Origin: an uncultured Halobacteriales archaeon
Lineage (GTDB): Archaea > Thermoplasmatota > E2 > JACPAO01
Length of the DNA: 64,000 nt
Direction of reading: 5' to 3'
Assembly: GCA_964408365.1 (NCBI GenBank)
Contig: CAYOZB010000001.1
Coordinates: forward strand, 2,157-66,156
Positions 3,127 through 50,084 of this stretch are shown here, piece by piece. The notes under the pieces are model-generated. The model was not told the origin of the DNA. It saw nothing but the letters and a program-made list of their open reading frames with translations, and did no database searches. Every line of letters starts with the position of its first letter. Within the stretch, counting starts at the first letter, position 1. Both the position numbers and the translations under genes were made by a program.

Positions 3127-3344
3127 GGTCGCGGCGAGTTCACGAGGTCAAACGGTCGGGGAACGTCATCCGGCGGCCCGGGCCGGCGAGGTAGGCCTAG
3201 ATGCCGTCGAATGTCTTGAGCATCTGGTGGGCGCGTTCGCGTTCCTTCGCAAGCCCGCGCGCAGCGACGGGTTGGAGTCCTTGCTTCGGGACATCGAGAA
3301 AGAAGGCGGGCATCTTCGTCGGGTCCGTTGAGCTACCGCTCAGT

Positions 3345-3394: not shown

Positions 3395-4228
3395 TTACTT
3401 GATGCCGTATTTCTTTCGAAGCGCGACTGCGCCGGGGCGGTTCTGGTAGGCGCCCTTGCCGCCGCGGGCGCTCATCGCGCGCTTCTTGAATGCTGCGAAC
3501 TCAGTGTTGTACCGATTTCGGCGCTCAGCGAGCGTCAACGGTTTTTTGCCCGCGCCTTTCTTGACGGTCGCCTTGCGGGCCGGCGCGGGTTTGGCCGCCA
3601 CGGGCGCGACGATCTTCTTGCGCGGAGCGAGCCGAGCGATCTCGGCGTTCGCCTTGTCGAGGCGCGCTTCGGTGTCTTCGAACACCTTGTAGAGTTTCGC
3701 GAGCCGCTCCTGTTCCTGGGTGAAGAGTTTCACGTATTCTTCCAAGCGGGAGGCGGTGCGGGCAGCGTCGCCTTTGAGGAGTTGGTTCTCGGACTCGAGG
3801 TCCAGGATGCGCGCCTTGACGCGGGCGGGGGATCCGAGGTCGACGAGGGATTTCTCGAGCTTGCGGTACTCGCCCAGGATGTCGTCCCGTTCTCGCTCGA
3901 GGGCCTTGAGTTGGTCTTCCTGGGTCTTGAAGGCGTCCCAGAGCTTGGCGAGCCGGCGCTGCTCGGACTCGAGTTCGAGGATGTATTTCCGGGCCTCGGC
4001 GCCGGATTCCACGGTCTTGATCCGGGCCTCGAGTTGATCGATGACGGAAAGCAGATCGTTGAGGTACTTGAGGTCCAACATTCCGCGGATGCGGTCGAGG
4101 CTGTCCACTTCCTCGCGGGTGCGGTCGCGGACGCGGGTGAGTTCATCCGCCACTTGGCGCAGATTGGACTTGAGGCTCTCTGCGCTTTCCATTGGAATGA
4201 TGACATTCTTCTCGTTCGAAGTGGCCAT
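3395..4228 (-). CDS. Coiled-coil protein with lysine/alanine/proline-rich basic C-terminal tail (possible nucleoid- or filament-associated protein)
   Basis: About 200 aa of heptad-like E/K/L/R-rich sequence, then KKIVAPVAAKPAPARKATVKKGAGKKPL...RKKYGIK. No enzymatic motifs. Confidence 0.5.
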   Translation of the reverse strand: MATSNEKNVIIPMESAESLKSNLRQVADELTRVRDRTREEVDSLDRIRGMLDLKYLNDLLSVIDQLEARIKTVESGAEARKYILELESEQRRLAKLWDAFKTQEDQLKALERERDDILGEYRKLEKSLVDLGSPARVKARILDLESENQLLKGDAARTASRLEEYVKLFTQEQERLAKLYKVFEDTEARLDKANAEIARLAPRKKIVAPVAAKPAPARKATVKKGAGKKPLTLAERRNRYNTEFAAFKKRAMSARGGKGAYQNRPGAVALRKKYGIK

Positions 4229-4303
4229 AAAAGCTCTGAACCCGAACCGCTCAAACTTCGAGGAGCCTATAAAAGCCCTTTGTTGTGAGGCGAGCGGCCG
4301 TCG

Positions 4304-4648
4304 TCATGTTTTTGTCGTCGGGTCCGTCGACTCGGCTTCCGGCGTGGTCATGTTGCCGAAGACACGCATCATTTGAGCGACGTAGGATCGGAATTCCTCG
4401 TCGCCACGCGGCCTGATCTTGAACGCCCGGTGCTTGGTAACCGAATTGGGAGTCCATTCCAGGGCGACGTAGCCCGCCTCTTCCAGAACACGAAGATGAG
4501 CGGGGAGATTCCCAGCCGTTAGGGTCGTGCTTTTTTGGAGCGAGGCGAACCGCATCGAGCGGTGGATCGCCCGGCGGCTCATGATGGTAATCCGCGGCGC
4601 GGAGTCGAGCACCTGATTGAATGCATCGGGACGGATTTCGTCGCTCAT
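4304..4648 (-). CDS. Small winged-helix transcriptional regulator
   Basis: Only the last 114 codons of track ORF 4304..4987 look like protein (MSDEIRPDAFNQVLDSAPRITIMSRRAIHRSMRFASLQKST...LRVLEEAGYVALEW: helix-turn-helix then wing). The upstream part of that ORF is Arg-rich non-protein-like sequence. Confidence 0.45.
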   Translation of the reverse strand: MSDEIRPDAFNQVLDSAPRITIMSRRAIHRSMRFASLQKSTTLTAGNLPAHLRVLEEAGYVALEWTPNSVTKHRAFKIRPRGDEEFRSYVAQMMRVFGNMTTPEAESTDPTTKT

Positions 4649-4650
4649 GG

Positions 4651-4830
4651 TCACTCTGGATTCGCCAGGATGCGGAGCGTTCCGAGAATTGCGAGAGGGA
4701 TCATGTATCCGATGGCGATCCAGGTGAACATGAGGTCTTGCGACAGGACCCCGAGCGCCAACAAGAGGGGCCATACCACCGAGACCATGGCATAGGTGCG
4801 CAGGACAGGGTCGTCGTGCTGCTTGCTCAT
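4651..4830 (-). CDS. Possible 59-aa two-TM membrane protein (below the ORF-track length cut-off)
   Basis: My own translation: MSKQHDDPVLRTYAMVSVVWPLLLALGVLSQDLMFTWIAIGYMIPLAILGTLRILANPE. It ends 2 nt before the regulator start. Coordinates approximate. Confidence 0.2.
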   Translation of the reverse strand: MSKQHDDPVLRTYAMVSVVWPLLLALGVLSQDLMFTWIAIGYMIPLAILGTLRILANPE

Positions 4831-4899
4831 CGACTTTCCGGGCAGGGAACGATTGAAGGAGAGGGCGCGGCCCGTCCTGGACCCGCGCCGATCGCTCTC

Positions 4900-5022
4900 C
4901 TACTCTTCGTCGACGCGGCCCTCCCAGTCGTCGGGGCGTTCGTCTTCGCCTCGCGACTCCCAGTAGGCGTCGTTGTTGGGGTTGCATTGGTTCGCGTGGT
5001 TGTCATCGTTGGGGTTGCCCAT
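4900..5022 (-). CDS. Possible 40-aa acidic small protein preceded by a GGAGGTGA Shine-Dalgarno
   Basis: My own translation: MGNPNDDNHANQCNPNNDAYWESRGEDERPDDWEGRVDEE. GGAGGTGA lies 7 nt upstream of the ATG. Coordinates approximate. Confidence 0.2.
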   Translation of the reverse strand: MGNPNDDNHANQCNPNNDAYWESRGEDERPDDWEGRVDEE

Positions 5023-5110
5023 GTTGCGGTGTCACCTCCGCGGCGTCAGCACGCCACATCCCGCTTTCTCGCCGGGATTCATAATGAGATGACCGAACAC
5101 CCGCCAATCC

Positions 5111-7015
5111 TCAACCGGAACAATGCGGGTGGACGAACGAATCCTTCCGAAACACGACGGGCGCGGACGTGGTGGCTGAGCGTGCGGCGCGAAGGGCCAG
5201 ATTGCGGATTTGGACCGCTCGCTGCCCGCCATCTCCCTCCATCATCGTCGCATCTGGAGGGTGAACCAGGAATTCTCCGTGGGTGCGGCTTGACGCTGAC
5301 AGGATCGCCGCAGCCTCTCGGGCCGCCGCGGTGAACTCCTCGGCGCCTTTCTTTGTGGCCAGATTGGCCCGGGAGATCCGCTCCAGCAAGATGCCCAGGT
5401 CCTTGCTACGACCCGTTGGCTGCGACCGGGCAGCCTTCAAGCGGGTCGCCGACCAGCCTTCCCAAAGCTCTCGAAGGCGATTTACGAGCCCCAATTCGGG
5501 AATCATGTGCAAGACCGAGCCCGATACTTCTTCCAACGTCCCCACGGCGACTTGATGAAACGGCTCATCACAAGCGGCGCAATCCTGCTCTCGTTCCAGT
5601 TTGAGGGAATATTCGCGGATTCCGAACCAGGTCGCCGGCGCCGCAGGATTCTTCAGAACCTCGGTTGGGCATTCTTCGTGCACCGGCGGAGCCCATCCGC
5701 GTTCCCGGTTCGCGGAGTCGTGTTTGCGTGATAATAATAGATTTCGCGACCCCCAACACTTTCCGCATTTTGAACAACGGCGGAGGAACATCCAGGCCGA
5801 CGGGGCGAGGACCAACTCGTCTGACGCTTCCAGCGAGCGCTTGATCGCCCCCGAAGCTCCCGCAATCAGCCCGTGGGAAATCGCCTTCTCGATCAACCGA
5901 AACACATTGGTTTCGCCCAGGAGCGCCAAACCCGACCGTCTGGCCTTGTAATTGGCCCGGTTGCGCCCTTGCACTTGTTCCCAGATTTCGCGGGGCGTGA
6001 TCTTGCCCCCCGATTGGAAAGCGTCCGCCGCTGCAGCAAGAAGGGTCGACGGGGGACGGGCGGGGCCCAACACGTAAGCCTTGCCTTCGCGAGCCAGCAG
6101 CTGTGCGTCCGTGAGCAAGTCCAGGTGCTCGTGGGTCGTCGGGGGTTTGACACCGAGTTGTCGTGCAATCGCGCGCGGGCCCAGTTTCTTCCTGGCGTCC
6201 ACATCGTCGAACAGGTCGTAGACGGCCAGCGGGCCTTGCTCGCGGCGTGCCCGGTCATGCAGGGATCGATACCGGGTGACCCGGCCTTCGGAGGTCATTT
6301 CGACTTTCTCGTTCAGCCGCAACTCCTCGAGCGTCCACTCCAATTCCTCACTTCGGTCCTTGTCCAAGTCGAAGACCTTGAGCAGATCCGAAACGGAAAG
6401 TCCTCGGCGGAGCCGCCACGTGGATTTGGCTTCGGTGACCTCGTGGAGCACCCTGAGGATTGCACGGTCGTCGACCGTCGCGGCATACTTGGCGAGCTCG
6501 AGGAATCCGGTCTCGTCGCGAGGAACGTCGTCGAGGTCAAGGTGCAACAAACGGGGGATGGGCAAGGCGGCCTGGACGTCGGCTTCGTCGAGTACGCGCT
6601 CCGGAACCCCTGTCAAGGCCGCAAACAGGACGCGCTGTGCTGCCGTGTGGTCCAATTCCGGTTTCAGCCACGGGGCGCCCCAATCGAGGATTGCGTTCCA
6701 CGTTTGGTCATACGTGGCCAATTGGCGCGCGTGATCGCACTCTTCGCGAAACTGCGGCAGGTTGCCCTTGCCGGAAAGCTGTTTGAGATGCGCAACCACC
6801 TCCGGCCACGGCGCCCGGAATGCTCGGGCAAGTTCCTCACCGGAGAGGGCACGTGGTCCGAGCCGGCGTTGCCATTGGAGGAAACCCAACACGTGTTGTT
6901 GGTCGCATTCGAGTTGGCGCCGCAAGGCGGTGTCTCCGACGCTCATGGGTTGCCTTAATGCTGCGCCTCCAACCCTGATAAGTCGATGACCGAACGTCGC
7001 CCGGATCAACTTCAC
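5111..7015 (-). CDS. Hypothetical 634-aa protein with several winged-helix-like segments and a Cys-rich (zinc-ribbon-like) region
   Basis: Repeated HTH-like stretches (LSGEELARAF...LKQLSGKGNL; LSVSDLLKVF...; AIARQLGVKPPTTHEHLDLL...). Cys cluster CSKCGKCWG...HEECPTEV...CAACDEPFH. Start overlaps the stop of the upstream Hjc-like gene (7012-7015), suggesting translational coupling. The C-terminal ~60 aa look low-complexity (possible frameshift). Confidence 0.5.
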   Translation of the reverse strand: MKLIRATFGHRLIRVGGAALRQPMSVGDTALRRQLECDQQHVLGFLQWQRRLGPRALSGEELARAFRAPWPEVVAHLKQLSGKGNLPQFREECDHARQLATYDQTWNAILDWGAPWLKPELDHTAAQRVLFAALTGVPERVLDEADVQAALPIPRLLHLDLDDVPRDETGFLELAKYAATVDDRAILRVLHEVTEAKSTWRLRRGLSVSDLLKVFDLDKDRSEELEWTLEELRLNEKVEMTSEGRVTRYRSLHDRARREQGPLAVYDLFDDVDARKKLGPRAIARQLGVKPPTTHEHLDLLTDAQLLAREGKAYVLGPARPPSTLLAAAADAFQSGGKITPREIWEQVQGRNRANYKARRSGLALLGETNVFRLIEKAISHGLIAGASGAIKRSLEASDELVLAPSAWMFLRRCSKCGKCWGSRNLLLSRKHDSANRERGWAPPVHEECPTEVLKNPAAPATWFGIREYSLKLEREQDCAACDEPFHQVAVGTLEEVSGSVLHMIPELGLVNRLRELWEGWSATRLKAARSQPTGRSKDLGILLERISRANLATKKGAEEFTAAAREAAAILSASSRTHGEFLVHPPDATMMEGDGGQRAVQIRNLALRAARSATTSAPVVFRKDSFVHPHCSG

Positions 7016-7416
7016 GTTGCAACGTCCTCGACCGACCCATCCGGGGCGACGAAGAGGGCCGTGATCCGTGTGCGACGTTTCGCCTCATCGGGCAGCCGCG
7101 TCGTTCGGAATTGTGGGTGTTCGGGGACCGCAATGCTGTACTTTGCCGCCGGGTCGGTCATCCGCTGCAACGTTTCACCCAAGACGCCGATGAAATAATT
7201 CACCCTCATGGGCTGCAGGGACCCGCCGCCCTTGGCTTCAATCAGCCAGCGCTCGGACCCCCGCTGCGCCGCAATATCCACGCCTCGCGTCTTGGCCACG
7301 GCGACCGCGCACGACCAACCCTGTTTCTCGAGGTGGGCGACGAGAAGGCGTTTCAGCTCGTCTTCTGTGAGTACAGCGGCGGCCGCTTCGAGCCGGCGAG
7401 GCTTTGTCGCCCGCAC
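7012..7416 (-). CDS. PD-(D/E)xK nuclease-fold protein, Hjc-like (putative Holliday-junction resolvase-type endonuclease)
   Basis: 134 aa with E...D...E-x-K spacing: TEDELKRLLVAHLEKQGW...GVDIAAQRGSERWLIEAKGGG. Size and motif order match Hjc/NucS-type archaeal nucleases; no search was run. Confidence 0.4.
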   Translation of the reverse strand: MRATKPRRLEAAAAVLTEDELKRLLVAHLEKQGWSCAVAVAKTRGVDIAAQRGSERWLIEAKGGGSLQPMRVNYFIGVLGETLQRMTDPAAKYSIAVPEHPQFRTTRLPDEAKRRTRITALFVAPDGSVEDVAT

Positions 7417-7495
7417 CCAAAGCCCCTTGTTTACGGAACCGTATACTGTATACGCCTTCGTAAACTATATTGATGGGGGCGACCAATTGTTTGCC

Positions 7496-7741
7496 ATGGC
7501 CGTTGTGAGCTTCCGACCCACGCAGGAGGAAGAAGCGATTATCGAACAAACGCGACGCAGCCTCGGCTCCGGCACGCGCACCGAAGCGGTTCGCTTCCTG
7601 ATTAAGAAGGGAGCGAAAACGGCAGGGTCGTTGGCGGATGATCCAGTGTGGAAGGCACGTGCTCCACCCGAGTTCTGGTTCAAGAAGAGTCTTTCAAGCC
7701 GAGAGATCGATCGACGGCTCTACGGACGACGGCGCCAATAG
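7496..7741 (+). CDS. vapB: Ribbon-helix-helix (CopG/VapB-like) antitoxin
   Basis: MAVVSFRPTQEEEAIIEQTRRSLGSGTRTEAVRFLIKKG has the beta-strand then two helices of an RHH. Its stop TAG abuts the ATG of the PIN gene. Only the last 81 codons of track ORF 7208..7741 are used. Confidence 0.55.
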   Translation: MAVVSFRPTQEEEAIIEQTRRSLGSGTRTEAVRFLIKKGAKTAGSLADDPVWKARAPPEFWFKKSLSSREIDRRLYGRRRQ

Positions 7742-8143
7742 ATGCGTCTCGCTGTGGACAGCTGGGCGTTCATCGAGAGCTTCTTCAGTGGTCCGCGAAG
7801 GGCCGAGGTCGACGCCTTGCTCAAGAACTCCGAAATTCTCGTCACCTCTCGCGAAATTGTTGTGGAGACGTTCAATTCGATTGTCTATGAGCTGCGGCGG
7901 ACATCCCCCGCCAACGACTGGCTCCAACTGCTCCGCTCCAGCCGGACGCGTGTCATCGAACCTGCCATGCACGACGTCGAGGCGTTCATGCAAGCGCTCG
8001 GTGCAAGGTCGACCCTAAGCTACGCGGACTCGTCTCTGGCCTTCGTTGCACAATCAGAAGGCATCGCCCACGTGATCACCGAGGACAGCGGTTTCCGCCA
8101 GGCGCGACTGGAGCCGCTCTTTTCAAAGCCCCTCCGCCGCTGA
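7742..8143 (+). CDS. vapC: PIN-domain toxin (VapC-like ribonuclease)
   Basis: MRLAVDSWAFIE... (Asp near residue 6), ...ITEDSGF acidic quartet typical of PIN/VapC. Immediately follows the RHH gene. Confidence 0.65.
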   Translation: MRLAVDSWAFIESFFSGPRRAEVDALLKNSEILVTSREIVVETFNSIVYELRRTSPANDWLQLLRSSRTRVIEPAMHDVEAFMQALGARSTLSYADSSLAFVAQSEGIAHVITEDSGFRQARLEPLFSKPLRR

Positions 8144-8168
8144 GGGCCGCGCCCAAGTGGGCGCAGAC

Positions 8169-8639
8169 CTACGCCACTTCGGCGCCGTGCTGGGAACCCT
8201 TGGCCATCGATGGGCCGGGTCCGCCGTCCTTCTTTTCGAACTTGACCACGGGCATCGGGATCGGTGGTGGCAGTTGGACGGCGCGCGCGAGCGTCACGGC
8301 TTCCGGCAAGCAGGCGTGCATGATGGTGGTGTGGATCTCGGAGGCGGCTTCGCCGGGCATCTGCTTCTTCTCTTCCCATTCTTTGATGGCTTGGGGAGCC
8401 AACGGGCCGCTGTAGAGGAATTCGCCTTCGATCTTGATGACGCCGAGCGGACCGTACACGGCGGTATAGTTGAACTCGATGTGGGCCGAGTTGGGACCTT
8501 CGGGGCGGATGACGGTGACGGCGAGGTTGTTGTCGATGCGGACCTGGATGGGGGCGGGGGCGACTTTGAGGAATCTTCGCGCTTCGACGTTCTTGAGTTG
8601 GAGCTGTGAGACGTTTCCCATCTTAGACGCCCGAACCAA
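8169..8639 (-). CDS. Hypothetical protein (start probably MGNVSQLQLK at about 8621)
   Basis: Protein-like composition (NYTAVYGPLGVIKIEGEFLYSGPLAPQAIKEWEEKK) but I recognise no motif. Confidence 0.35.
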   Translation of the reverse strand: MVRASKMGNVSQLQLKNVEARRFLKVAPAPIQVRIDNNLAVTVIRPEGPNSAHIEFNYTAVYGPLGVIKIEGEFLYSGPLAPQAIKEWEEKKQMPGEAASEIHTTIMHACLPEAVTLARAVQLPPPIPMPVVKFEKKDGGPGPSMAKGSQHGAEVA

Positions 8640-8698: not shown

Positions 8699-9634
8699 TC
8701 AACCGGCCCCGTGGAGCGTTGTGATATCGGCGACGACATGGTCCGCACGGTCTTCGGAAACGCCGCGGGAGACCAGGAACTTCTTCGCCTTCGCGGCGTT
8801 GGGTGGGGCAAATTTTGGTCGGAACTTTCGGTCGATGGGATGCGACAAGAACACGTCTCGTACCGCTTCGTACTCGGGCATCTTGCCGCCGCGTTCCGCG
8901 AGCGCCTTCGCCAAGCTTCCGTGGCGTTTGATGATCTGGATCGCCGTCACGGGACCGACGCCGCGCACGCCGTCATTGTAATCGGTGCCGATGAGGATCG
9001 CCGCGTCGACCAATTGTTCCCGCGTCAAGCCCGCTGCGGCCAGCGATGCTTTGAGGTCAAGGAGCTCCGGCGGACGCGTCTTGCTCTGCGTCAGGTTGCG
9101 AAGCGCACGAGGCGCGCCAAAAAGCGCGATGTCCCAATCCTGCGTCACCGCGGCCCACGCGTCCCCATCTTGCGCAAGATGCGCGCATTGCGCATCCGAC
9201 TCACCGGGGGCGACCATGTTGGGGATGCCCAACGCGTCGAGCAACGTGCGGCATTCCGCCAGGTCCTCCGGGGTGACTTCGATGCCCGCCTGCGTATCGC
9301 CCCGGGCGCGGGCGGCCTCGATCTTTTCCACGCGACCGATGAGGGTCGCCTGTTTCAGCTCCGGTTGGACACCATCGAAGATCCACGCACTCTTGACGCC
9401 CCACGCAGCGTAGGCGCGCAACCGGCCCACGAGCCCGTACAGGTGCGCCATCGGGCGACCATCCGGCGCGCGCGGGAAATCACCGGTCGCCCCCAGCGCG
9501 GTGGCGAAGGCCCAGATGAGGTTGTCCGCGTCGACGGCGACGACCCTGCCGGATAGTTTCGTCGGATCGAACGGGACCGGCGAGAGGATCTTGCGGAGGG
9601 CGGAGAGTCCCACGATTCCCGAAACCGCCTGCAT
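8699..9634 (-). CDS. fen1: Flap endonuclease 1 (FEN-1)
   Basis: RVVAVDADNLIWAF...GRPMAHLYGLVGR...IFDG...PGESDAQCAHLAQDGDAWAAVTQDWDIALFG...GTDYNDGVRGVGPVTAIQ (H3TH) follow the archaeal FEN-1 motif order. Start at M104 of the track ORF; the upstream part is non-protein-like. Confidence 0.8.
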   Translation of the reverse strand: MQAVSGIVGLSALRKILSPVPFDPTKLSGRVVAVDADNLIWAFATALGATGDFPRAPDGRPMAHLYGLVGRLRAYAAWGVKSAWIFDGVQPELKQATLIGRVEKIEAARARGDTQAGIEVTPEDLAECRTLLDALGIPNMVAPGESDAQCAHLAQDGDAWAAVTQDWDIALFGAPRALRNLTQSKTRPPELLDLKASLAAAGLTREQLVDAAILIGTDYNDGVRGVGPVTAIQIIKRHGSLAKALAERGGKMPEYEAVRDVFLSHPIDRKFRPKFAPPNAAKAKKFLVSRGVSEDRADHVVADITTLHGAG

Positions 9635-9942
9635 CTGATGGAGTTTTTGCCAGAGCAGGCCAGCCGTTCGAATCGTGGCCCGCGGTGGGATTATCAAAGG
9701 GCTCGAGAATCTTGCTGGTTTCCCTGCGTTCGGACCAGTTGTATCGGGCGCTCCAACCGTGATGACCGACCAACGAATCTGAGCAAGTGGTTTCGGAGCC
9801 TTTCCGCGGCTTCCGCGAATGTTACCGATTGGGAGAGAAAACGTAAATGATGGCCGCGCAAAGCGCGTGCGCATCGTTATCATTGGATGGGCAGTCCCAG
9901 CGCCTACCTCTTGTAAGGGGCCATCAAGGAGGAACAAGAACA

Positions 9943-10413
9943 ATGCGTACCCGAGGAAGTTGGACCATTACGATTGTGACCGGAGCATTCCTGACCATGG
10001 CGCTCGCCGCACCGATGGCGGCAAGCTATGCGGAGGCCGAAGCCAGCGTGGACATGAGCGGACTCGGAGGATGGACTTGCACGGCGCGGATCGAATACTA
10101 TGCGTACGCCGACGTCCCAGTTTTTGACATCGGGGCAACCGTCCTCGCTGAGGGTTCCGGCACCGCAGCGCCAACGCTCGCCGACTCCGGAATGGCACCC
10201 GCAAAGACATCTGCTAGCGTTGACTGGGACCAGACAATCTCCGTGCCGGCCGGCGAATTCGCTGTAGCCTTTGCGCACGCCCGTTCCCAAGGAATCATCA
10301 GCGGCACGCAGGACGCCACGATGGACGATGACGCCCAATGCGAAGAAGGCGTGGCTGACGAACTGTGCGAGCTTAATCTCGCGTTCTGCGACCCCCTGCG
10401 ACCGAAACCTTAG
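9943..10413 (+). CDS. Small secreted protein (signal peptide; unknown function)
   Basis: AAGGAGGAAC Shine-Dalgarno 8 nt upstream of the ATG; MRTRGSWTITIVTGAFLTMALAAPMAASYAEA signal peptide; four Cys. Confidence 0.45.
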   Translation: MRTRGSWTITIVTGAFLTMALAAPMAASYAEAEASVDMSGLGGWTCTARIEYYAYADVPVFDIGATVLAEGSGTAAPTLADSGMAPAKTSASVDWDQTISVPAGEFAVAFAHARSQGIISGTQDATMDDDAQCEEGVADELCELNLAFCDPLRPKP

Positions 10414-10467
10414 CGAGCAACCTACTTCTAACCGCGTGGAGTATCACCTGGGAAGGGTTTGGTAACA

Positions 10468-11976
10468 ATGAGACGCGGCTTCTCCGTCCTTCTCATCCTC
10501 ATGTTCATGCCGTGGGCTGGCTGCCTTGAAAGCCTCGCTGACACGGGCGAGTGCACCGTACATCTCCCAGCTGTGACGGCAGGCGACACGTACCTCTACG
10601 AGGCAAATGGGTCCCTTGCACACATCTACACGACAGCTGGCGCCGTCACCCATTGGACCGCTGTAGACGATACTTGGACGGAGGGCAACCTTGCGTTCGG
10701 AGGCATCCTGACCGTCAACAAGGGAGCAACGCTGAAAATTCGGATCGCAGACCAGCCAATCCCGCGCCTCCAGTACCAAGGCCTGGTGCGGCCGGCCTAT
10801 CAAATTGCGTACGAAGTGAAAGACCCCGCGCACGAACCCGTTTTCCACTACGTGGACGAATGGATGGATGCCGAATCAGGGGACTTGGTGGCCGCCAGCT
10901 TGCGTGCCACATATGATTTTGGCGACGACCAAGACCATCTTATCCGCCTCATGCGGGACGGCCGCGCTCCATTATTCATTTCTGGCGCCTTGCCGTCGGA
11001 ACTAGAAGCGGGGCACCGAATTGGGATTAACTCGGCCCCGGAAGTTCGCGGCGGACCACGCGCTCGAGCCGAACGAATTGAAGGAGGAGCGGCTCTGGAC
11101 GGTAGCGTACAGCGCACGGAACTCATCCGCGGCGTGTGTCATGCATTCGTCGAGATCGAGTACAGCGAACTAAGAAACACGCGTTCTGAAATTCAGATAC
11201 AAATCCGTGCCACATACCGGGACGGGCGTCCCCTCCCTGTCGAATACACCGAACACTATCCGCCGTCCTTCGGGTATCTCGACATGAAGTTGGTCCTAGC
11301 GGAGTACAGGGGGGCCAATGGCGCGGCCCTGCCAGAATGGAACCCGCCTTCCCGACAAAATGGCTCCCTAAAGACACAGATCGCGCCCGATGGCTTCTTG
11401 CCTTACACGAAGAACATCTTCCCGACCACATTCGCGGAAGCGGAACAGGCAATCCGCGCGGACGAAGTCGCCGCGACATGGCTCAACGCAAGGGCCGATG
11501 CAACCTTGCTTGAGGTGAGGCACGTCATGGGTGACCCATCGACCGACGCCGTAGACCAGTGGGAGATAACATGGGCGGACAACGAAAAAGCGCTTCTCAC
11601 GGCCACCGCCACGAAGCGCCGCTCATTATTGCCTGATACACCCGTGACGAAACGCGAGGAAATTCAGGTCACGACCAAGCTGGGCGACAAAGCCGACGAC
11701 CTTCCTGGGCCGGTGACACCAAGGATCGCTCTTGATGACATGGACAAGTTGTCAAGGACGTTCTACAAAGAACCGTTGGAATTTCTCTCGTGTGACTTCT
11801 TCCGAAATGATTGCTGGTTTGGATCCCACAATGTTACGGGGTGGCCGAAGGCCGGGGAGACGGGCGGCGGCCTGCCGCAACCGGGCCTAATGATATTCCT
11901 TGAGGCCGGGTGGCTGTTCATGGAACAATCCTATGCGCAGCGCGCATTAGACGACGCGGCCGCCCCAGAGGCCTAG
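10468..11976 (+). CDS. Secreted lipoprotein, unknown function
   Basis: MRRGFSVLLILMFMPWAGC (lipobox-like AGC). 500 aa without recognisable catalytic motifs. Confidence 0.5.
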   Translation: MRRGFSVLLILMFMPWAGCLESLADTGECTVHLPAVTAGDTYLYEANGSLAHIYTTAGAVTHWTAVDDTWTEGNLAFGGILTVNKGATLKIRIADQPIPRLQYQGLVRPAYQIAYEVKDPAHEPVFHYVDEWMDAESGDLVAASLRATYDFGDDQDHLIRLMRDGRAPLFISGALPSELEAGHRIGINSAPEVRGGPRARAERIEGGAALDGSVQRTELIRGVCHAFVEIEYSELRNTRSEIQIQIRATYRDGRPLPVEYTEHYPPSFGYLDMKLVLAEYRGANGAALPEWNPPSRQNGSLKTQIAPDGFLPYTKNIFPTTFAEAEQAIRADEVAATWLNARADATLLEVRHVMGDPSTDAVDQWEITWADNEKALLTATATKRRSLLPDTPVTKREEIQVTTKLGDKADDLPGPVTPRIALDDMDKLSRTFYKEPLEFLSCDFFRNDCWFGSHNVTGWPKAGETGGGLPQPGLMIFLEAGWLFMEQSYAQRALDDAAAPEA

Positions 11977-12113
11977 AGGTGACCGTTCGGCTTTCGGCCC
12001 GATTGGCGCAAGCAACCGGACGAGCTCGGTTATCAGGACAAGCCACCGACGCACCGACCCACTTTCACCCATCCCCTCCCGTTCCCTAAGTACCATGAAG
12101 CCCGAATGCGTCG

Positions 12114-13094
12114 ATGTTGGCCGGAGGGACCCCAGCGCCAAGTCTCGAGGAAGCAGCGAACGCCATCCTCGAAGAAGTCCAGGGCACACTCGACCATCCC
12201 CTCGAATTCTTGCCGATCCAAGTCGCAAAGCACGGGCGACGTTGTGCTGCCGTCGACGGTGGCTCGACGGTCGTCCTCAACGCGCGCACCGCCGGCATGT
12301 ACGCCATCCGAGCGGGGTACGCGCTTCGCGAACCCGACGACCGCCACTTGCTCCGGATCTCCTCCAACACGTGGCGGACCGCCACGAAACGTTCCACCGG
12401 CCGACTCTGGACCGAACTCAAACGCCACTACGCGTGGGGCGTCGACGTGGAGGCTCCGAAAATCGACGCGGCGCGCCTCGTCCCGCAATTGGCGGAAGCA
12501 GAACGGGTGCTCGCCGAGTTCGACGCCTCTCGCCGCGCCCTCAAGGAACTCCGCTCCGGCGATCTTCTCCTCGTCGACGGATCGTTCGACGATGAAGAAC
12601 GGTTCGCTCCGCTTCGAGAGAACCTTCTCGAATGGGCCGAAGCCGGCGGCGTTGGCGTCATCGGCGTGTCCAAGGACACGAGCCTGTCCGTCGGGGGCAT
12701 CCTACCGTTCACGTTGGAACTCGAAGAGTTGAGCGCGTCGCGAAAAGTGACGGCCCCTTGGATGGTGGATGTCACCGCTGCGCTTGGTTACGGCGAACGG
12801 GGATTCCAAGTGTTCGGCATGCAATTCGACACGCGCTCCACGCCCTACCGGGTCGACGTGTCGGGGGTCGACGCGGCGGAGGCAGCCTCGTTCTTGCTGA
12901 GCCTCTGCAACGATCCGGCGTACGCGGGCTACCCCTACCCACTTGCGCGTGTGCACCAACGGGTGCATTACGAAAGCGGCGAATCGATGGACCTGCGACG
13001 CGAACTCGAAGGCATCGTTGCGCGACGACGAGGCCACCGGCTCAGTATGCGACTCTTTGGAAACGGACGGGACGTGCTGGAACTTGCCAACTGA
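12114..13094 (+). CDS. nurA: NurA 5'-3' nuclease
   Basis: CAAVDGGSTVV (the NurA IDGS-type motif), size about 325 aa, immediately upstream of HerA. Confidence 0.7.
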   Translation: MLAGGTPAPSLEEAANAILEEVQGTLDHPLEFLPIQVAKHGRRCAAVDGGSTVVLNARTAGMYAIRAGYALREPDDRHLLRISSNTWRTATKRSTGRLWTELKRHYAWGVDVEAPKIDAARLVPQLAEAERVLAEFDASRRALKELRSGDLLLVDGSFDDEERFAPLRENLLEWAEAGGVGVIGVSKDTSLSVGGILPFTLELEELSASRKVTAPWMVDVTAALGYGERGFQVFGMQFDTRSTPYRVDVSGVDAAEAASFLLSLCNDPAYAGYPYPLARVHQRVHYESGESMDLRRELEGIVARRRGHRLSMRLFGNGRDVLELAN

Positions 13095-13128
13095 ACATGA
13101 CGTCGGACGCATCACGGGAAAAAGCGTT

Positions 13129-14664
13129 ATGGAGCTTGAGCTCCGCGTCCCCTACCGACTCGACGTGAGCCTCGGAGAGATGCTCGTCGGCGTCGAGGAA
13201 GGATCAGAACGGACGTTCCTGCTCCGCGTCACGAACATCCTTCACGGCGCCGAGTCGACCCACGATGACTGGGAGCACCGCGTCGCCGGCTCGATGATGC
13301 GCCTCGACAAGGAGAACGCCAAGTACGATCTCCACGACCGAGAAGAGCGACTGTATCAGGTCGCGGTCGCAACGCCCTTGGGGTTCATCGACAAGGAAGA
13401 GTCGCCGCCCCGGCTTCGCAAACCAAAAACGCTTCCGCCGCAGTTTTCCCTGGTCCGGCGCCTCAATAAGGAGGATCTCGAATTCCTCGCTTCCTACGAG
13501 CAAGACATCCCCATCGGGAAACTCCGAAGCGGATCCCATACGTTGGAGCAGCGCGTCGGAATCCACGGCCGGTACCTGGGCCACCACATCGGCGTGTTCG
13601 CGACGACGGGCATGGGAAAGAGCAACCTCATGAAGACCTTCGGCGCGAGCATCATGCGTTCGCACCGGTACGGCATGCTCGTCTTCGATCCCCATGGCGA
13701 ATACTATGATGGAGGCGCGGGCGTCCTGCCGGACGGACGGAAGCTGCAGGGCCTCATCCATTCGCCCGACGCGGCCGAGCGGCTCGTCGTGTACTCGTCG
13801 CGCCAACTTTCCGGCCCATACAACCAACTCAAGATCAGCGCCGCCGAGATCACGATCGCGGACCTCAAGGCCGTTTACACGTTCTCTCAAGCCCAGGAGG
13901 AATGCTTGTGGGCGCTCAACGCAGTCTACGGGGAAACATGGCTCCTCGATCTCGCATCGTCCAGTCCTGAGGAGCTCAACATCCACTTCGGCTCGAAATT
14001 CCACGAGATGACCCTGGCCGTGCTCAAGCGGCGCGCGGAGCAGGTCCTTCGGTTCGATGTCGTGCACGCCGACCCCGGCGTCACGGTGACGCCTGGGATC
14101 TTGAAGGCGCTCGAGGAAGCGCGGTTGGTCCTCGTGGACACGGCGAGCTTGTGGGAACCCGAGGAACTCCTCGTTTCCGCCGTATTGGCGCGCAGTGTCT
14201 TGAAACGCAACAAGGAGCGGTTCAAGCGCCCCGTAGAATTCCAGGCGACGCCGCATGTGATCATCGCGATGGAAGAAGCGCAACGCGTGCTCGCGAACCG
14301 CGAGGGCGAAGCATCCGTGTTCGCTCAGATCGCGCGTGAGGGTCGCAAGTTCAAGACCGGCTTGTGCGCGATCACGCAGCAGCCGAAGCTGATCCCCGAG
14401 GAGCTCCTATCCCAGTTCAACACGTTCTTCATCCTGGGCTTGGCCGACGAACGAGACCGGGAGATCATCGTCGGCAGCGCCAAGCAGGACATGGGTGCGT
14501 TGGTGCATGAGATCCAGACGTTGGAACCGGGCGAGGCGATCATCGCGTCGCCGAACGTGCCCTTTGCGGTCCCCGCCAAGGTCGACCTGTATGAGGACCT
14601 CTTGCCGACGCTGACGCGCAATGGCGTGAAGCTCGTCTCGCCGTTGCCGAAGGCGTTCTACTGA
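13129..14664 (+). CDS. herA: HerA hexameric DNA helicase/translocase (FtsK-HerA superfamily ATPase)
   Basis: Walker A FATTGMGKSNLMK; Walker B/acidic IIAMEEAQRV; about 510 aa. Start at M63 of the track ORF, 35 nt after the NurA stop. Confidence 0.8.
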   Translation: MELELRVPYRLDVSLGEMLVGVEEGSERTFLLRVTNILHGAESTHDDWEHRVAGSMMRLDKENAKYDLHDREERLYQVAVATPLGFIDKEESPPRLRKPKTLPPQFSLVRRLNKEDLEFLASYEQDIPIGKLRSGSHTLEQRVGIHGRYLGHHIGVFATTGMGKSNLMKTFGASIMRSHRYGMLVFDPHGEYYDGGAGVLPDGRKLQGLIHSPDAAERLVVYSSRQLSGPYNQLKISAAEITIADLKAVYTFSQAQEECLWALNAVYGETWLLDLASSSPEELNIHFGSKFHEMTLAVLKRRAEQVLRFDVVHADPGVTVTPGILKALEEARLVLVDTASLWEPEELLVSAVLARSVLKRNKERFKRPVEFQATPHVIIAMEEAQRVLANREGEASVFAQIAREGRKFKTGLCAITQQPKLIPEELLSQFNTFFILGLADERDREIIVGSAKQDMGALVHEIQTLEPGEAIIASPNVPFAVPAKVDLYEDLLPTLTRNGVKLVSPLPKAFY

Positions 14665-43020: not shown

Positions 43021-43074
43021 GTCGTTCCGGCAAATGCCCGCGCCGCGTAAGGGTTCGCCTTGGAGTTGGAAAGG

Positions 43075-43163
43075 CGTGGGGGCGGGATTCGAACCCGCGA
43101 GGACCGCCTTCGGGATCCATTGGTCCTCAGCCAATCGCCTTTTCCAGGCTGGGCTACCCCCAC
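43075..43163 (-). tRNA. tRNA-Leu (anticodon GAG), type II with long variable arm; no encoded CCA; possible 1-nt defect at the T-stem/acceptor junction
   Basis: Reverse complement reads GTGGGGG-TA-GCC(C)-AGCCTGGAAAA-GGC-G-ATTGG-CTGAGGA-CCAAT-[20-nt variable arm]-GCGGG-TTCGAAT-CCCG-CCCCCAC-G. Anticodon loop CTGAGGA gives GAG. The 3-bp D-stem and long variable arm are Leu-like. One C fewer than tRNA-2 between T-stem and acceptor. Confidence 0.6.
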
Positions 43164-43215
43164 GTTCCGAACGATTTTCTTGCCCCACCACCATGTACTC
43201 GTTGGACTCCTGTCC

Positions 43216-49972: not shown

Positions 49973-49996
49973 CTCCCCTTCCACGATGTGGAGAGG

Positions 49997-50084
49997 CGTG
50001 GGGGGCGGGATTTGAACCCGCGAGGACTGCCACATCCAACTTGGTCCTCAGCCAAGCGCCGTAACCGGTCTGGGCCACCCCCAC
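49997..50084 (-). tRNA. tRNA-Leu (anticodon GAG), type II, canonical stems, no encoded CCA
   Basis: Reverse complement GTGGGGG-TG-GCC-C-AGACCGGTTAC-GGC-G-CTTGG-CTGAGGA-CCAAG-[18-nt variable arm]-GCGGG-TTCAAAT-CCCGC-CCCCCAC-G. All stems pair. Differs from copy 1 in D-loop, anticodon stem, variable arm and T-loop. Confidence 0.7.

Follow-up and report, generated by a model that had tools for sequence, protein, structure and literature searches.

We analyzed a 64-kb stretch of DNA (the window) from an uncultured, high-GC archaeon, which its FEN-1 homologues place in the Thermoplasmatota, and concentrated on two adjacent reverse-strand genes: a small one for a 134-residue protein (7012..7416, GTG start) and a large one for a 634-residue protein (5111..7015). 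Both open reading frames (ORFs) lie where the original prediction had put them. The best-supported explanation of the small protein is that it is a horizontally acquired, restriction-like nuclease domain from a bacterial defence-island family, which has lost the DNA-binding module that its relatives carry in cis. The locus is not a housekeeping Hjc or repair locus. We read it as an accessory, strain-variable, restriction-like cassette in which the large protein gives recognition or regulation in trans, a reading to which we assign roughly even chances. Taken by itself, the proposal that the large protein supplies recognition in trans comes from one locus only and is tentative, lying somewhere between unlikely and possible.

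In mechanistic terms, the small protein would be the Mg2+-dependent, DNA-cleaving subunit, and the DNA recognition or regulation normally provided in cis by a fused winged helix would instead be supplied in trans by the large protein. Both the defence role and the physical or functional partnership of the two proteins are putative, and the sections below set out what speaks for and against each.

The small protein and its nuclease family

An AlphaFold2 (AF2) model of the small protein, computed with its family alignment, reaches a pLDDT (predicted local distance difference test) score of 83.6 and has an alpha-beta-beta-beta-alpha-beta core. All Foldseek matches of this model in the PDB are PD-(D/E)xK proteins. 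The top two are the XisH structures 2inb and 2okf (E 1e-5 to 4e-5, TM-score 0.58–0.63, probability 1.00), followed by AF2093 (E ~2e-3, TM-score 0.36–0.58) and then, at E values of ~1e-2 or weaker, by Hjc (TM-score 0.33–0.43), PaqCI, Bax1 and others. In an alignment of 43 homologues, E18, D47 and K62 are invariant and E60 is nearly so (reverse-strand codons 7363–7365, 7276–7278, 7231–7233 and 7237–7239, respectively); the same alignment contains a second strongly conserved block comprising M70, N73, Y74, F75, E81 and Q84. The E…D…ExK catalytic motif proposed originally is therefore real, and the small protein does model onto the expected fold. On the strength of the model, we confidently assign it a PD-(D/E)xK nuclease fold with an intact catalytic tetrad, and we infer that it has nuclease activity.

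Sequence libraries are less informative about this protein. It has no match in Pfam (E ≤ 0.1), NCBIfam or PHROGs; neither the single sequence nor a family profile matches any PDB sequence, Hjc chains included; and the window proteins give insignificant matches only in PADLOC-DB 2.0 (HEC-01B at E 0.036 and the winged helix of Csa3 at E 6e-4).

A database search nevertheless placed the 134-residue protein in a widely transferred family of at least 400 related clusters, at ~55–68% identity, whose members are mostly 203–221 residues long and carry the source annotations ‘MarR family transcriptional regulator’ or ‘hypothetical’. In the usual architecture, a MarR-like (MarR_2) winged helix of ~70 residues precedes a nuclease domain of ~120 residues; in other members, DUF7669 or DUF7662 stands in place of the winged helix. 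The sole Pfam links of the nuclease domain are sub-threshold matches to Mrr_cat and NOV_C, and the Mrr_cat match occurs in one homologue only (P0021; E 1.5e-3, 19.1 bits, below the 21-bit cut-off) and not in the window protein. In a GTDB reference set containing one genome per species, 41 of 41 family loci are bacterial, with 45–63% identity, and their hosts include Proteobacteria, Chloroflexi, Firmicutes, Acidobacteria, Spirochaetes, Synergistetes and other phyla. Two more copies lie on actinobacterial plasmids. A viral origin was rejected on the grounds that no phage genome searched has a match to the nuclease family and that the 2.9 million viral contigs of IMG/VR yield just one (and none to the large protein).

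The window copy is a divergent, stand-alone nuclease domain with no N-terminal module, and a profile of the family winged helix-turn-helix (wHTH) run over positions 4000–8300 found no remnant of one. True short forms also occur in bacteria (L032, L036, L039 and P0009), where their neighbours are unrelated to one another, metabolic genes for example. Four apparent short forms (L002, L025, L038 and L040) were rejected as such, as a wHTH profile search located the missing module just upstream in another frame or ORF, the genes being split or frameshifted. At the P0040 locus (L054:905–1647), the DUF7662 module is encoded by a gene of its own (103 residues), which shares 4 nt with the nuclease gene, whereas in P0101 the DUF7662 and nuclease domains are fused. 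This comparison provides sequence-level evidence of gene fission, and suggests therefore that the nuclease domain can work with a separately encoded partner.

To describe the genomic contexts of the family, we surveyed two genes on either side of each copy. The resulting 149 neighbour proteins match 135 different Pfam families, with no fixed partner. Most frequent are ResIII/Helicase_C proteins (four), DUF6094 methyltransferases and the C-terminal domain of DNA polymerase III beta (three each), followed by N6_N4 methylases, Mutator transposases and DUF499 proteins (two each), and PADLOC recognizes Hma, MTase, PbeA, MADS and DrmD/BrxH-type proteins among them. For example, in an alphaproteobacterial metagenome-assembled genome (L008:6234–16637), a full-length, 209-residue member lies between HmaA (1170 residues) and HmaB (971 residues) within a complete Hma/DUF499 system. 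At L002, a copy stands directly upstream of a helicase/DUF499/DUF7680/DUF1156 (Hma) system, and on the Nocardioides conjugative plasmid pNOCA01 another is found among the McrBC, UvrD-helicase and AAA ATPase genes of an island. No published model for Hma-embedded candidates matches the family. Most family loci, the window included, are without an Hma system, and the only defence-type neighbour in the window is a VapBC pair.

Published work gives these contexts some meaning. Genes embedded in Hma systems often prove to be independent defence genes (bioRxiv 10.1101/2024.01.29.577857), stand-alone PD-(D/E)xK nucleases have been described as auxiliary effectors of DUF499-centred systems (PMC12839542), and modification-dependent restriction enzymes are known to take the form of small fusions between a winged helix and an endonuclease (PMC11037411). 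Combining this literature with the architecture and defence contexts of the family, we infer that its members are restriction-like nucleases whose N-terminal DNA reader can be exchanged. In both architecture and contexts, the family resembles modification-dependent (type IV) or auxiliary restriction nucleases.

The large protein and the pairing of the two genes

The two genes were originally described as translationally coupled through an ATGA-type overlap of 4 nt. Four nucleotides (7012–7015) are indeed shared if the large gene begins at its GTG, but the sequence at this point reads acGTGAag, so that the overlap is GTGA and not ATGA, and it exists only with the GTG start. A public gene call on an identical contig instead starts the large gene at an ATG at 6946, 69 nt later, which gives a protein of 611 residues and a gap of 65 nt to the stop of the small gene. 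A purine run resembling a Shine–Dalgarno (SD) sequence lies upstream of both starts. We lean slightly toward the ATG at 6946 because the 23 extra codons of the long version have a lower GC content at third positions (GC3) than the whole gene (0.57 versus 0.71). Under either start, the two genes run in the same direction and are separated by no more than 65 nt, a search for a terminator-like site between them found none, and they are likely co-transcribed. The small gene has an SD-like AAGGGG 8–13 nt upstream of its own start.

An exhaustive HMMER search of 1.84 billion representatives returned one relative only of the large protein, P0122 (618 residues, E 1e-18), which is 29% identical to it over 361 residues; PHROGs gave no match. 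The ORF nevertheless appears to be a real, long-resident gene, with a GC1/2/3 coding pattern that resembles that of host genes. At least three winged-helix-like segments had been proposed, and two are supported. The first, of ArsR/MarR type (residues 270–316; 6068..6208, reverse strand), matches Pfam HTH_20 (E 3.3e-6, residues 274–314) as well as HTH_IclR and MarR_2, the NCBIfam ArsR/SmtB model (E 1.2e-5) and, by profile, the ArsR structure 6j0e; P0122 gives the same helix-turn-helix (HTH) matches. The second (residues 183–251; 6263..6469, reverse strand) is the only locally confident stretch of the AF2 model of the large protein (pLDDT ~58–78), where it shows an H-H-H-E-E topology, and it has a weak winged-helix match of TFIIE_beta type. 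For a possible third, at residues ~52–86, there are weak matches only.

The cysteine motifs of the large protein, first taken for a C4-type cluster, are real but are better described as two CxxC…HxxC motifs. One consists of C414, C417, H446 and C449 (5669..5776, reverse strand). In the second putative zinc site, the CxxC of C479 and C482 (5570..5581, reverse strand) is likely partnered by H629 and C632, the C-terminal HxxC within a conserved FVHxxC motif (5120..5131, reverse strand). P0122 keeps all of these residues. As had been suggested, the large protein contains no ATPase or other enzymatic domain that Pfam, NCBIfam, PADLOC or PHROGs can detect, and a profile search against PDB sequences found only the ArsR-type winged helix. 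Its AF2 model, computed from a two-sequence alignment, has an overall pLDDT of 38 and was not used for a fold search. By these criteria, the large protein is a near-orphan with at least two predicted winged helices and two CxxC…HxxC motifs.

Conservation of the two genes as neighbours in other genomes, on which the idea of a two-gene module had been staked, was not found. No relative of the large protein is encoded at any of the 41 bacterial nuclease-family loci; a tblastn search of 48 loci with the large protein as query recovered only the window contig (L001) and the two contigs that carry P0122 (L047 and L048); and these latter contigs, of 2.6–3.4 kb, contain no gene of the small family.

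The surroundings of P0122 are of interest in their own right. On L047, a gene for a metallo-beta-lactamase-fold protein lies upstream of P0122 on the other strand. Downstream of P0122 (L047:557–2413), after ~480 nt and on the same strand, is a gene for a 152-residue ERCC4-domain nuclease (L047:2897–3355, forward strand; Pfam E 4e-6) that weakly resembles the Hef nuclease domain of P. furiosus (1j22); tblastn with this protein found no homologue in the 64-kb window. That both members of the large-protein family neighbour a small nuclease of the PD-(D/E)xK superfamily is a lead drawn from two cases only.

A variable segment beside FEN-1

Gene order in the window runs from FEN-1 through a gene for a 156-residue protein, VapC, VapB, the nuclease, the large protein, 40- and 59-residue ORFs and an HTH_34 gene to a coiled-coil gene. 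In the sister contig L049, whose FEN-1 is 95% identical, FEN-1, a 150-residue counterpart of the 156-residue ORF, VapC and VapB are followed almost directly by the coiled-coil gene. In L050 (FEN-1 85% identical), an unrelated gene for a 552-residue DUF4332 protein occupies the cassette spot on the opposite strand, and in L051 (76%) synteny is lost. The small gene is absent from the syntenic regions of all three. Comparison with L049 by blastn delimits a variable segment of 2952 bp (4556..7507), replaced there by 107 bp. In the window, this segment holds the nuclease, the large protein, the ORFs of 40 and 59 residues and, from the 5′ end of the HTH_34 gene, 93 nt.

The HTH_34 gene is intact in the window, has a full-length homologue in L050 and persists in L049 as a truncated and frameshifted remnant; on this distribution, it is ancestral to the lineage. 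Because one breakpoint falls within this gene, which is intact in the window and L050 and damaged in L049, we favour a deletion in L049 as the origin of the difference and reject an insertion in the window lineage. We found no direct or inverted repeats above background flanking the 2.95-kb segment, and no integrase or tRNA around it that would point to a mobile element. The cassette occupies an indel hotspot and is both accessory and dispensable.

Several observations weigh against a cassette whose two proteins cooperate in defence. First, the nuclease and the large protein are paired in one genome only, and their joint loss from L049 is not independent evidence of linkage, because it was a single event in which unrelated sequence was also lost. 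Second, a partner is not obligatory, because bacterial short forms of the nuclease occur without a consistent one. Third, a hidden Markov model of the family N-terminal wHTH, built from 30 sequences, has no match in the large protein, a result on which we rejected derivation of the large protein’s winged helices from that module. Fourth, defence-type neighbours occur at a minority of family loci, and seven family members searched with PADLOC gave no match at E ≤ 0.01. Finally, four hydrophobic positions that hardly vary in the rest of the family are radically altered in the window copy (W40V, L111E and the loss of an L-W pair), which could mean decay rather than adaptation.

Among the alternatives, the one that survives best is that the two genes are neighbours by chance, unrelated cargo of a hotspot between the conserved 156-residue gene and HTH_34. 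The nuclease would then act alone, for example as a homodimer, and the large protein would be an independent, lineage-specific DNA-binding regulator. Such turnover is just what the relatives display, with VapBC only at this spot in L049 and the DUF4332 gene in L050, and chance would also explain why the pair is found nowhere else, why bacterial short forms stand beside unrelated metabolic genes and why P0122 is without a small-family neighbour. It accounts less well for the tight spacing and possible overlap of the two genes with no terminator between them, for a window copy that is without the DNA-binding module most family members have, or for the presence of a small nuclease near the large protein’s only homologue as well. 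We consider chance neighbourhood a serious contender, if a somewhat unlikely one.

Alternatively, the small ORF could be a decaying remnant, a 5′-truncated and non-functional leftover of a transferred wHTH–nuclease gene that is being lost. The N-terminal module is gone with no remnant upstream, the window copy has 6 mismatches at 55 highly conserved columns (W40V, L111E and the lost L-W pair among them) compared with a family median of 1, and the whole segment has been deleted in L049. By contrast, the ORF is intact, retains all four catalytic residues, yields a confident AF2 model and is preceded by its SD-like AAGGGG. Moreover, its GC3 of 0.75 and its GC1/2/3 pattern match those of host genes, which indicates that the small gene has probably been long resident under coding constraint. 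The radical substitutions may stem from relaxed selection or from an altered surface for interaction. Overall, decay seems to us improbable.

The small protein was initially called Hjc-like, and a genuine Hjc-type resolvase, or a repair accessory tied to FEN-1 and NurA/HerA, would find some support in the superfamily fold, in protein length, in the E…D…ExK spacing, in the presence of Hjc (1gef, 1hh1 and 2wcw) among the Foldseek matches and in the location of FEN-1, NurA and HerA within 7 kb. These fold features, however, are common to the whole superfamily and not specific to Hjc, and a published classification treats XisH (listed as an fdxN excision factor), Hjc and Mrr as separate families (PMC3424549). 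Membership of the Hjc family does not hold: the protein has no match to Pfam Hjc (PF01870) at E ≤ 0.1, the Foldseek scores for Hjc are poor (E 9e-3 to 0.2 at the TM-scores given above), and XisH and AF2093 are structurally closer. In addition, the homologues are essentially bacterial, patchy in distribution and found in variable or defence contexts; the gene is dispensable, as sister archaeal genomes lack it and yet retain FEN-1, NurA and HerA; and VapBC and the unrelated 156-residue gene separate it from FEN-1. That FEN-1 lies close by is incidental, as related genomes have different genes in between. Within the window, tblastn with an approximate P. furiosus Hjc query found no homologue. Of the two roles first envisaged, a defence or restriction-like module fits the family contexts better and a repair factor less well, and the Hjc or repair explanation is largely refuted.

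The other neighbours named in the original prediction, FEN-1 and a VapBC pair, are both present. FEN-1 occupies 8699–9634 (XPG_I, E 1e-23). The vapBC genes (7496..8143, forward strand) are divergent from the nuclease gene and consist of an 81-residue VapB-like ORF (7496–7741) that abuts a PIN-domain VapC (7742–8143; PIN, E 2.3e-10); the two are 81% and 84% identical to their counterparts in L049. The divergent intergenic region that separates vapB from the nuclease gene contains, a short way upstream of the nuclease start, a 37-bp palindrome (7429..7465), GTTTACGGAACCGTATAC t GTATACGCCTTCGTAAAC, an inverted repeat whose 18-nt arms are 83% complementary and 1 nt apart. It is conserved in L049 and is probably the operator of VapB or a promoter region that the divergent genes share. 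On the other side of the cassette, downstream, HTH_34 is a 114-residue winged-helix regulator (4304..4648, reverse strand; Pfam HTH_34, E 1.1e-11), and a hydrophobic 59-residue ORF (4651..4830, reverse strand), present in both the ORF list and the public call, abuts its start and probably encodes two membrane helices.

Further differences between these genomes lie on either side. Between FEN-1 and NurA, positions 9613–12056 hold a second indel of ~2.4 kb with ORFs at 9847–10413 (188 residues) and 10459–11976 (505 residues), which blastn alignments to L049 and L050 skip; FEN-1 abuts NurA in L049, and a gene for a 357-residue HTH protein lies between them in L050. Between the coiled-coil and PHP genes, L049 and L050 carry a response-regulator gene, followed by an Hpt-domain gene in L049 and an unannotated 103-residue ORF in L050 (the stretch is L049:13446–14310, corresponding to window ~3229–3230). 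Because this stretch is missing from the window, the region from FEN-1 to PHP is an indel mosaic. NurA and HerA lie next to FEN-1 (window 12114–14664), and in L049:1–9899 genes for Mre11-like (Metallophos) and Rad50-like (SMC_N) proteins are found further on, separated from HerA by several unrelated genes. These genes make up a housekeeping cluster for end resection that has no relation to the cassette. Elsewhere in the window, two tRNA-Leu(GAG) genes on the same strand (43073–43164 and 49995–50084), 6.8 kb apart and ~85% identical, differ mainly in the variable arm; they represent paralogues or, possibly, a duplicated integration target.

Relation to known systems and implications

XisH (PF08814) is the closest solved fold, a stand-alone PD-(D/E)xK domain of similar size (~130 residues) that aligns with the small protein over ~126–131 positions at ~20% identity. 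In cyanobacteria, xisH acts with a downstream partner gene. By analogy with XisH/XisI, the small protein might control recombination or excision of an integrated element and have the large protein for a DNA-binding partner, and one family member, P0115, does adjoin an excisionase-type HTH_17 gene and a phage-type integrase. However, neither the window protein nor nine homologues match PF08814 at E ≤ 0.1, and the downstream protein in the window matches HTH and winged-helix profiles only, with no XisI match (E ≤ 0.1 for the whole protein, ≤ 1 for fragments). There is no integrase or flanking repeat around the segment, and viral sequences hold almost nothing of the family, with the single viral-contig match and none in phage genomes. 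Moreover, XisH is mostly cyanobacterial, whereas the present family is spread over many bacterial phyla and usually carries an N-terminal wHTH. We give excision control next to no weight.

Type IV restriction enzymes offer a parallel in architecture. The DpnI-like PD-(D/E)xK–winged helix, winged helix–GIY-YIG and winged helix–HNH fusions, and Mrr with its winged helix and Mrr_cat domain, likewise combine a small winged helix with a small nuclease in solitary genes (PMC11037411). By contrast, the present family has the winged helix before the nuclease, the opposite of the order in DpnI, its similarity to Mrr_cat is below the Pfam cut-off, and the window protein is without any winged helix. The auxiliary nucleases of BREX-related Hma/DUF499 systems are paralleled in location, with family members between HmaA and HmaB (L008) and upstream of HmaA (L002), but the family has no match among the PADLOC models, whether for HEC or for other defence proteins.

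There are several implications. The locus reveals no new Hjc partner and no archaeal repair factor. What it brings out is a widespread and strongly conserved wHTH/PD-(D/E)xK family, with 45–68% identity across bacterial phyla and one archaeon, that is unnamed in curated libraries, with no Pfam, NCBIfam or PADLOC model. Because family copies lie in or beside Hma, McrBC and methylase loci, the family may reasonably be put forward as a candidate single-gene defence nuclease of a type IV-like kind. The archaeal locus contributes a variant that is naturally ‘split’ and has an orphan DNA-binding protein next to it, and it documents an indel hotspot beside FEN-1 in soil Thermoplasmatota.

More speculatively, the pair could be an undescribed two-component archaeal DNA-targeting system, in which a nuclease uncoupled from its winged-helix sensor has come under the large orphan protein. 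On this view, small nucleases of the PD-(D/E)xK superfamily (XisH-like here, ERCC4 beside P0122) would be recruited repeatedly by the large-protein family, and the parent family would count as a new one of single-gene restriction or defence nucleases. This extended proposal we think unlikely, though worth stating. If the two proteins do cooperate, the locus would exemplify a defence nuclease that passed from one domain of life to another and was then re-wired to a new subunit for recognition.

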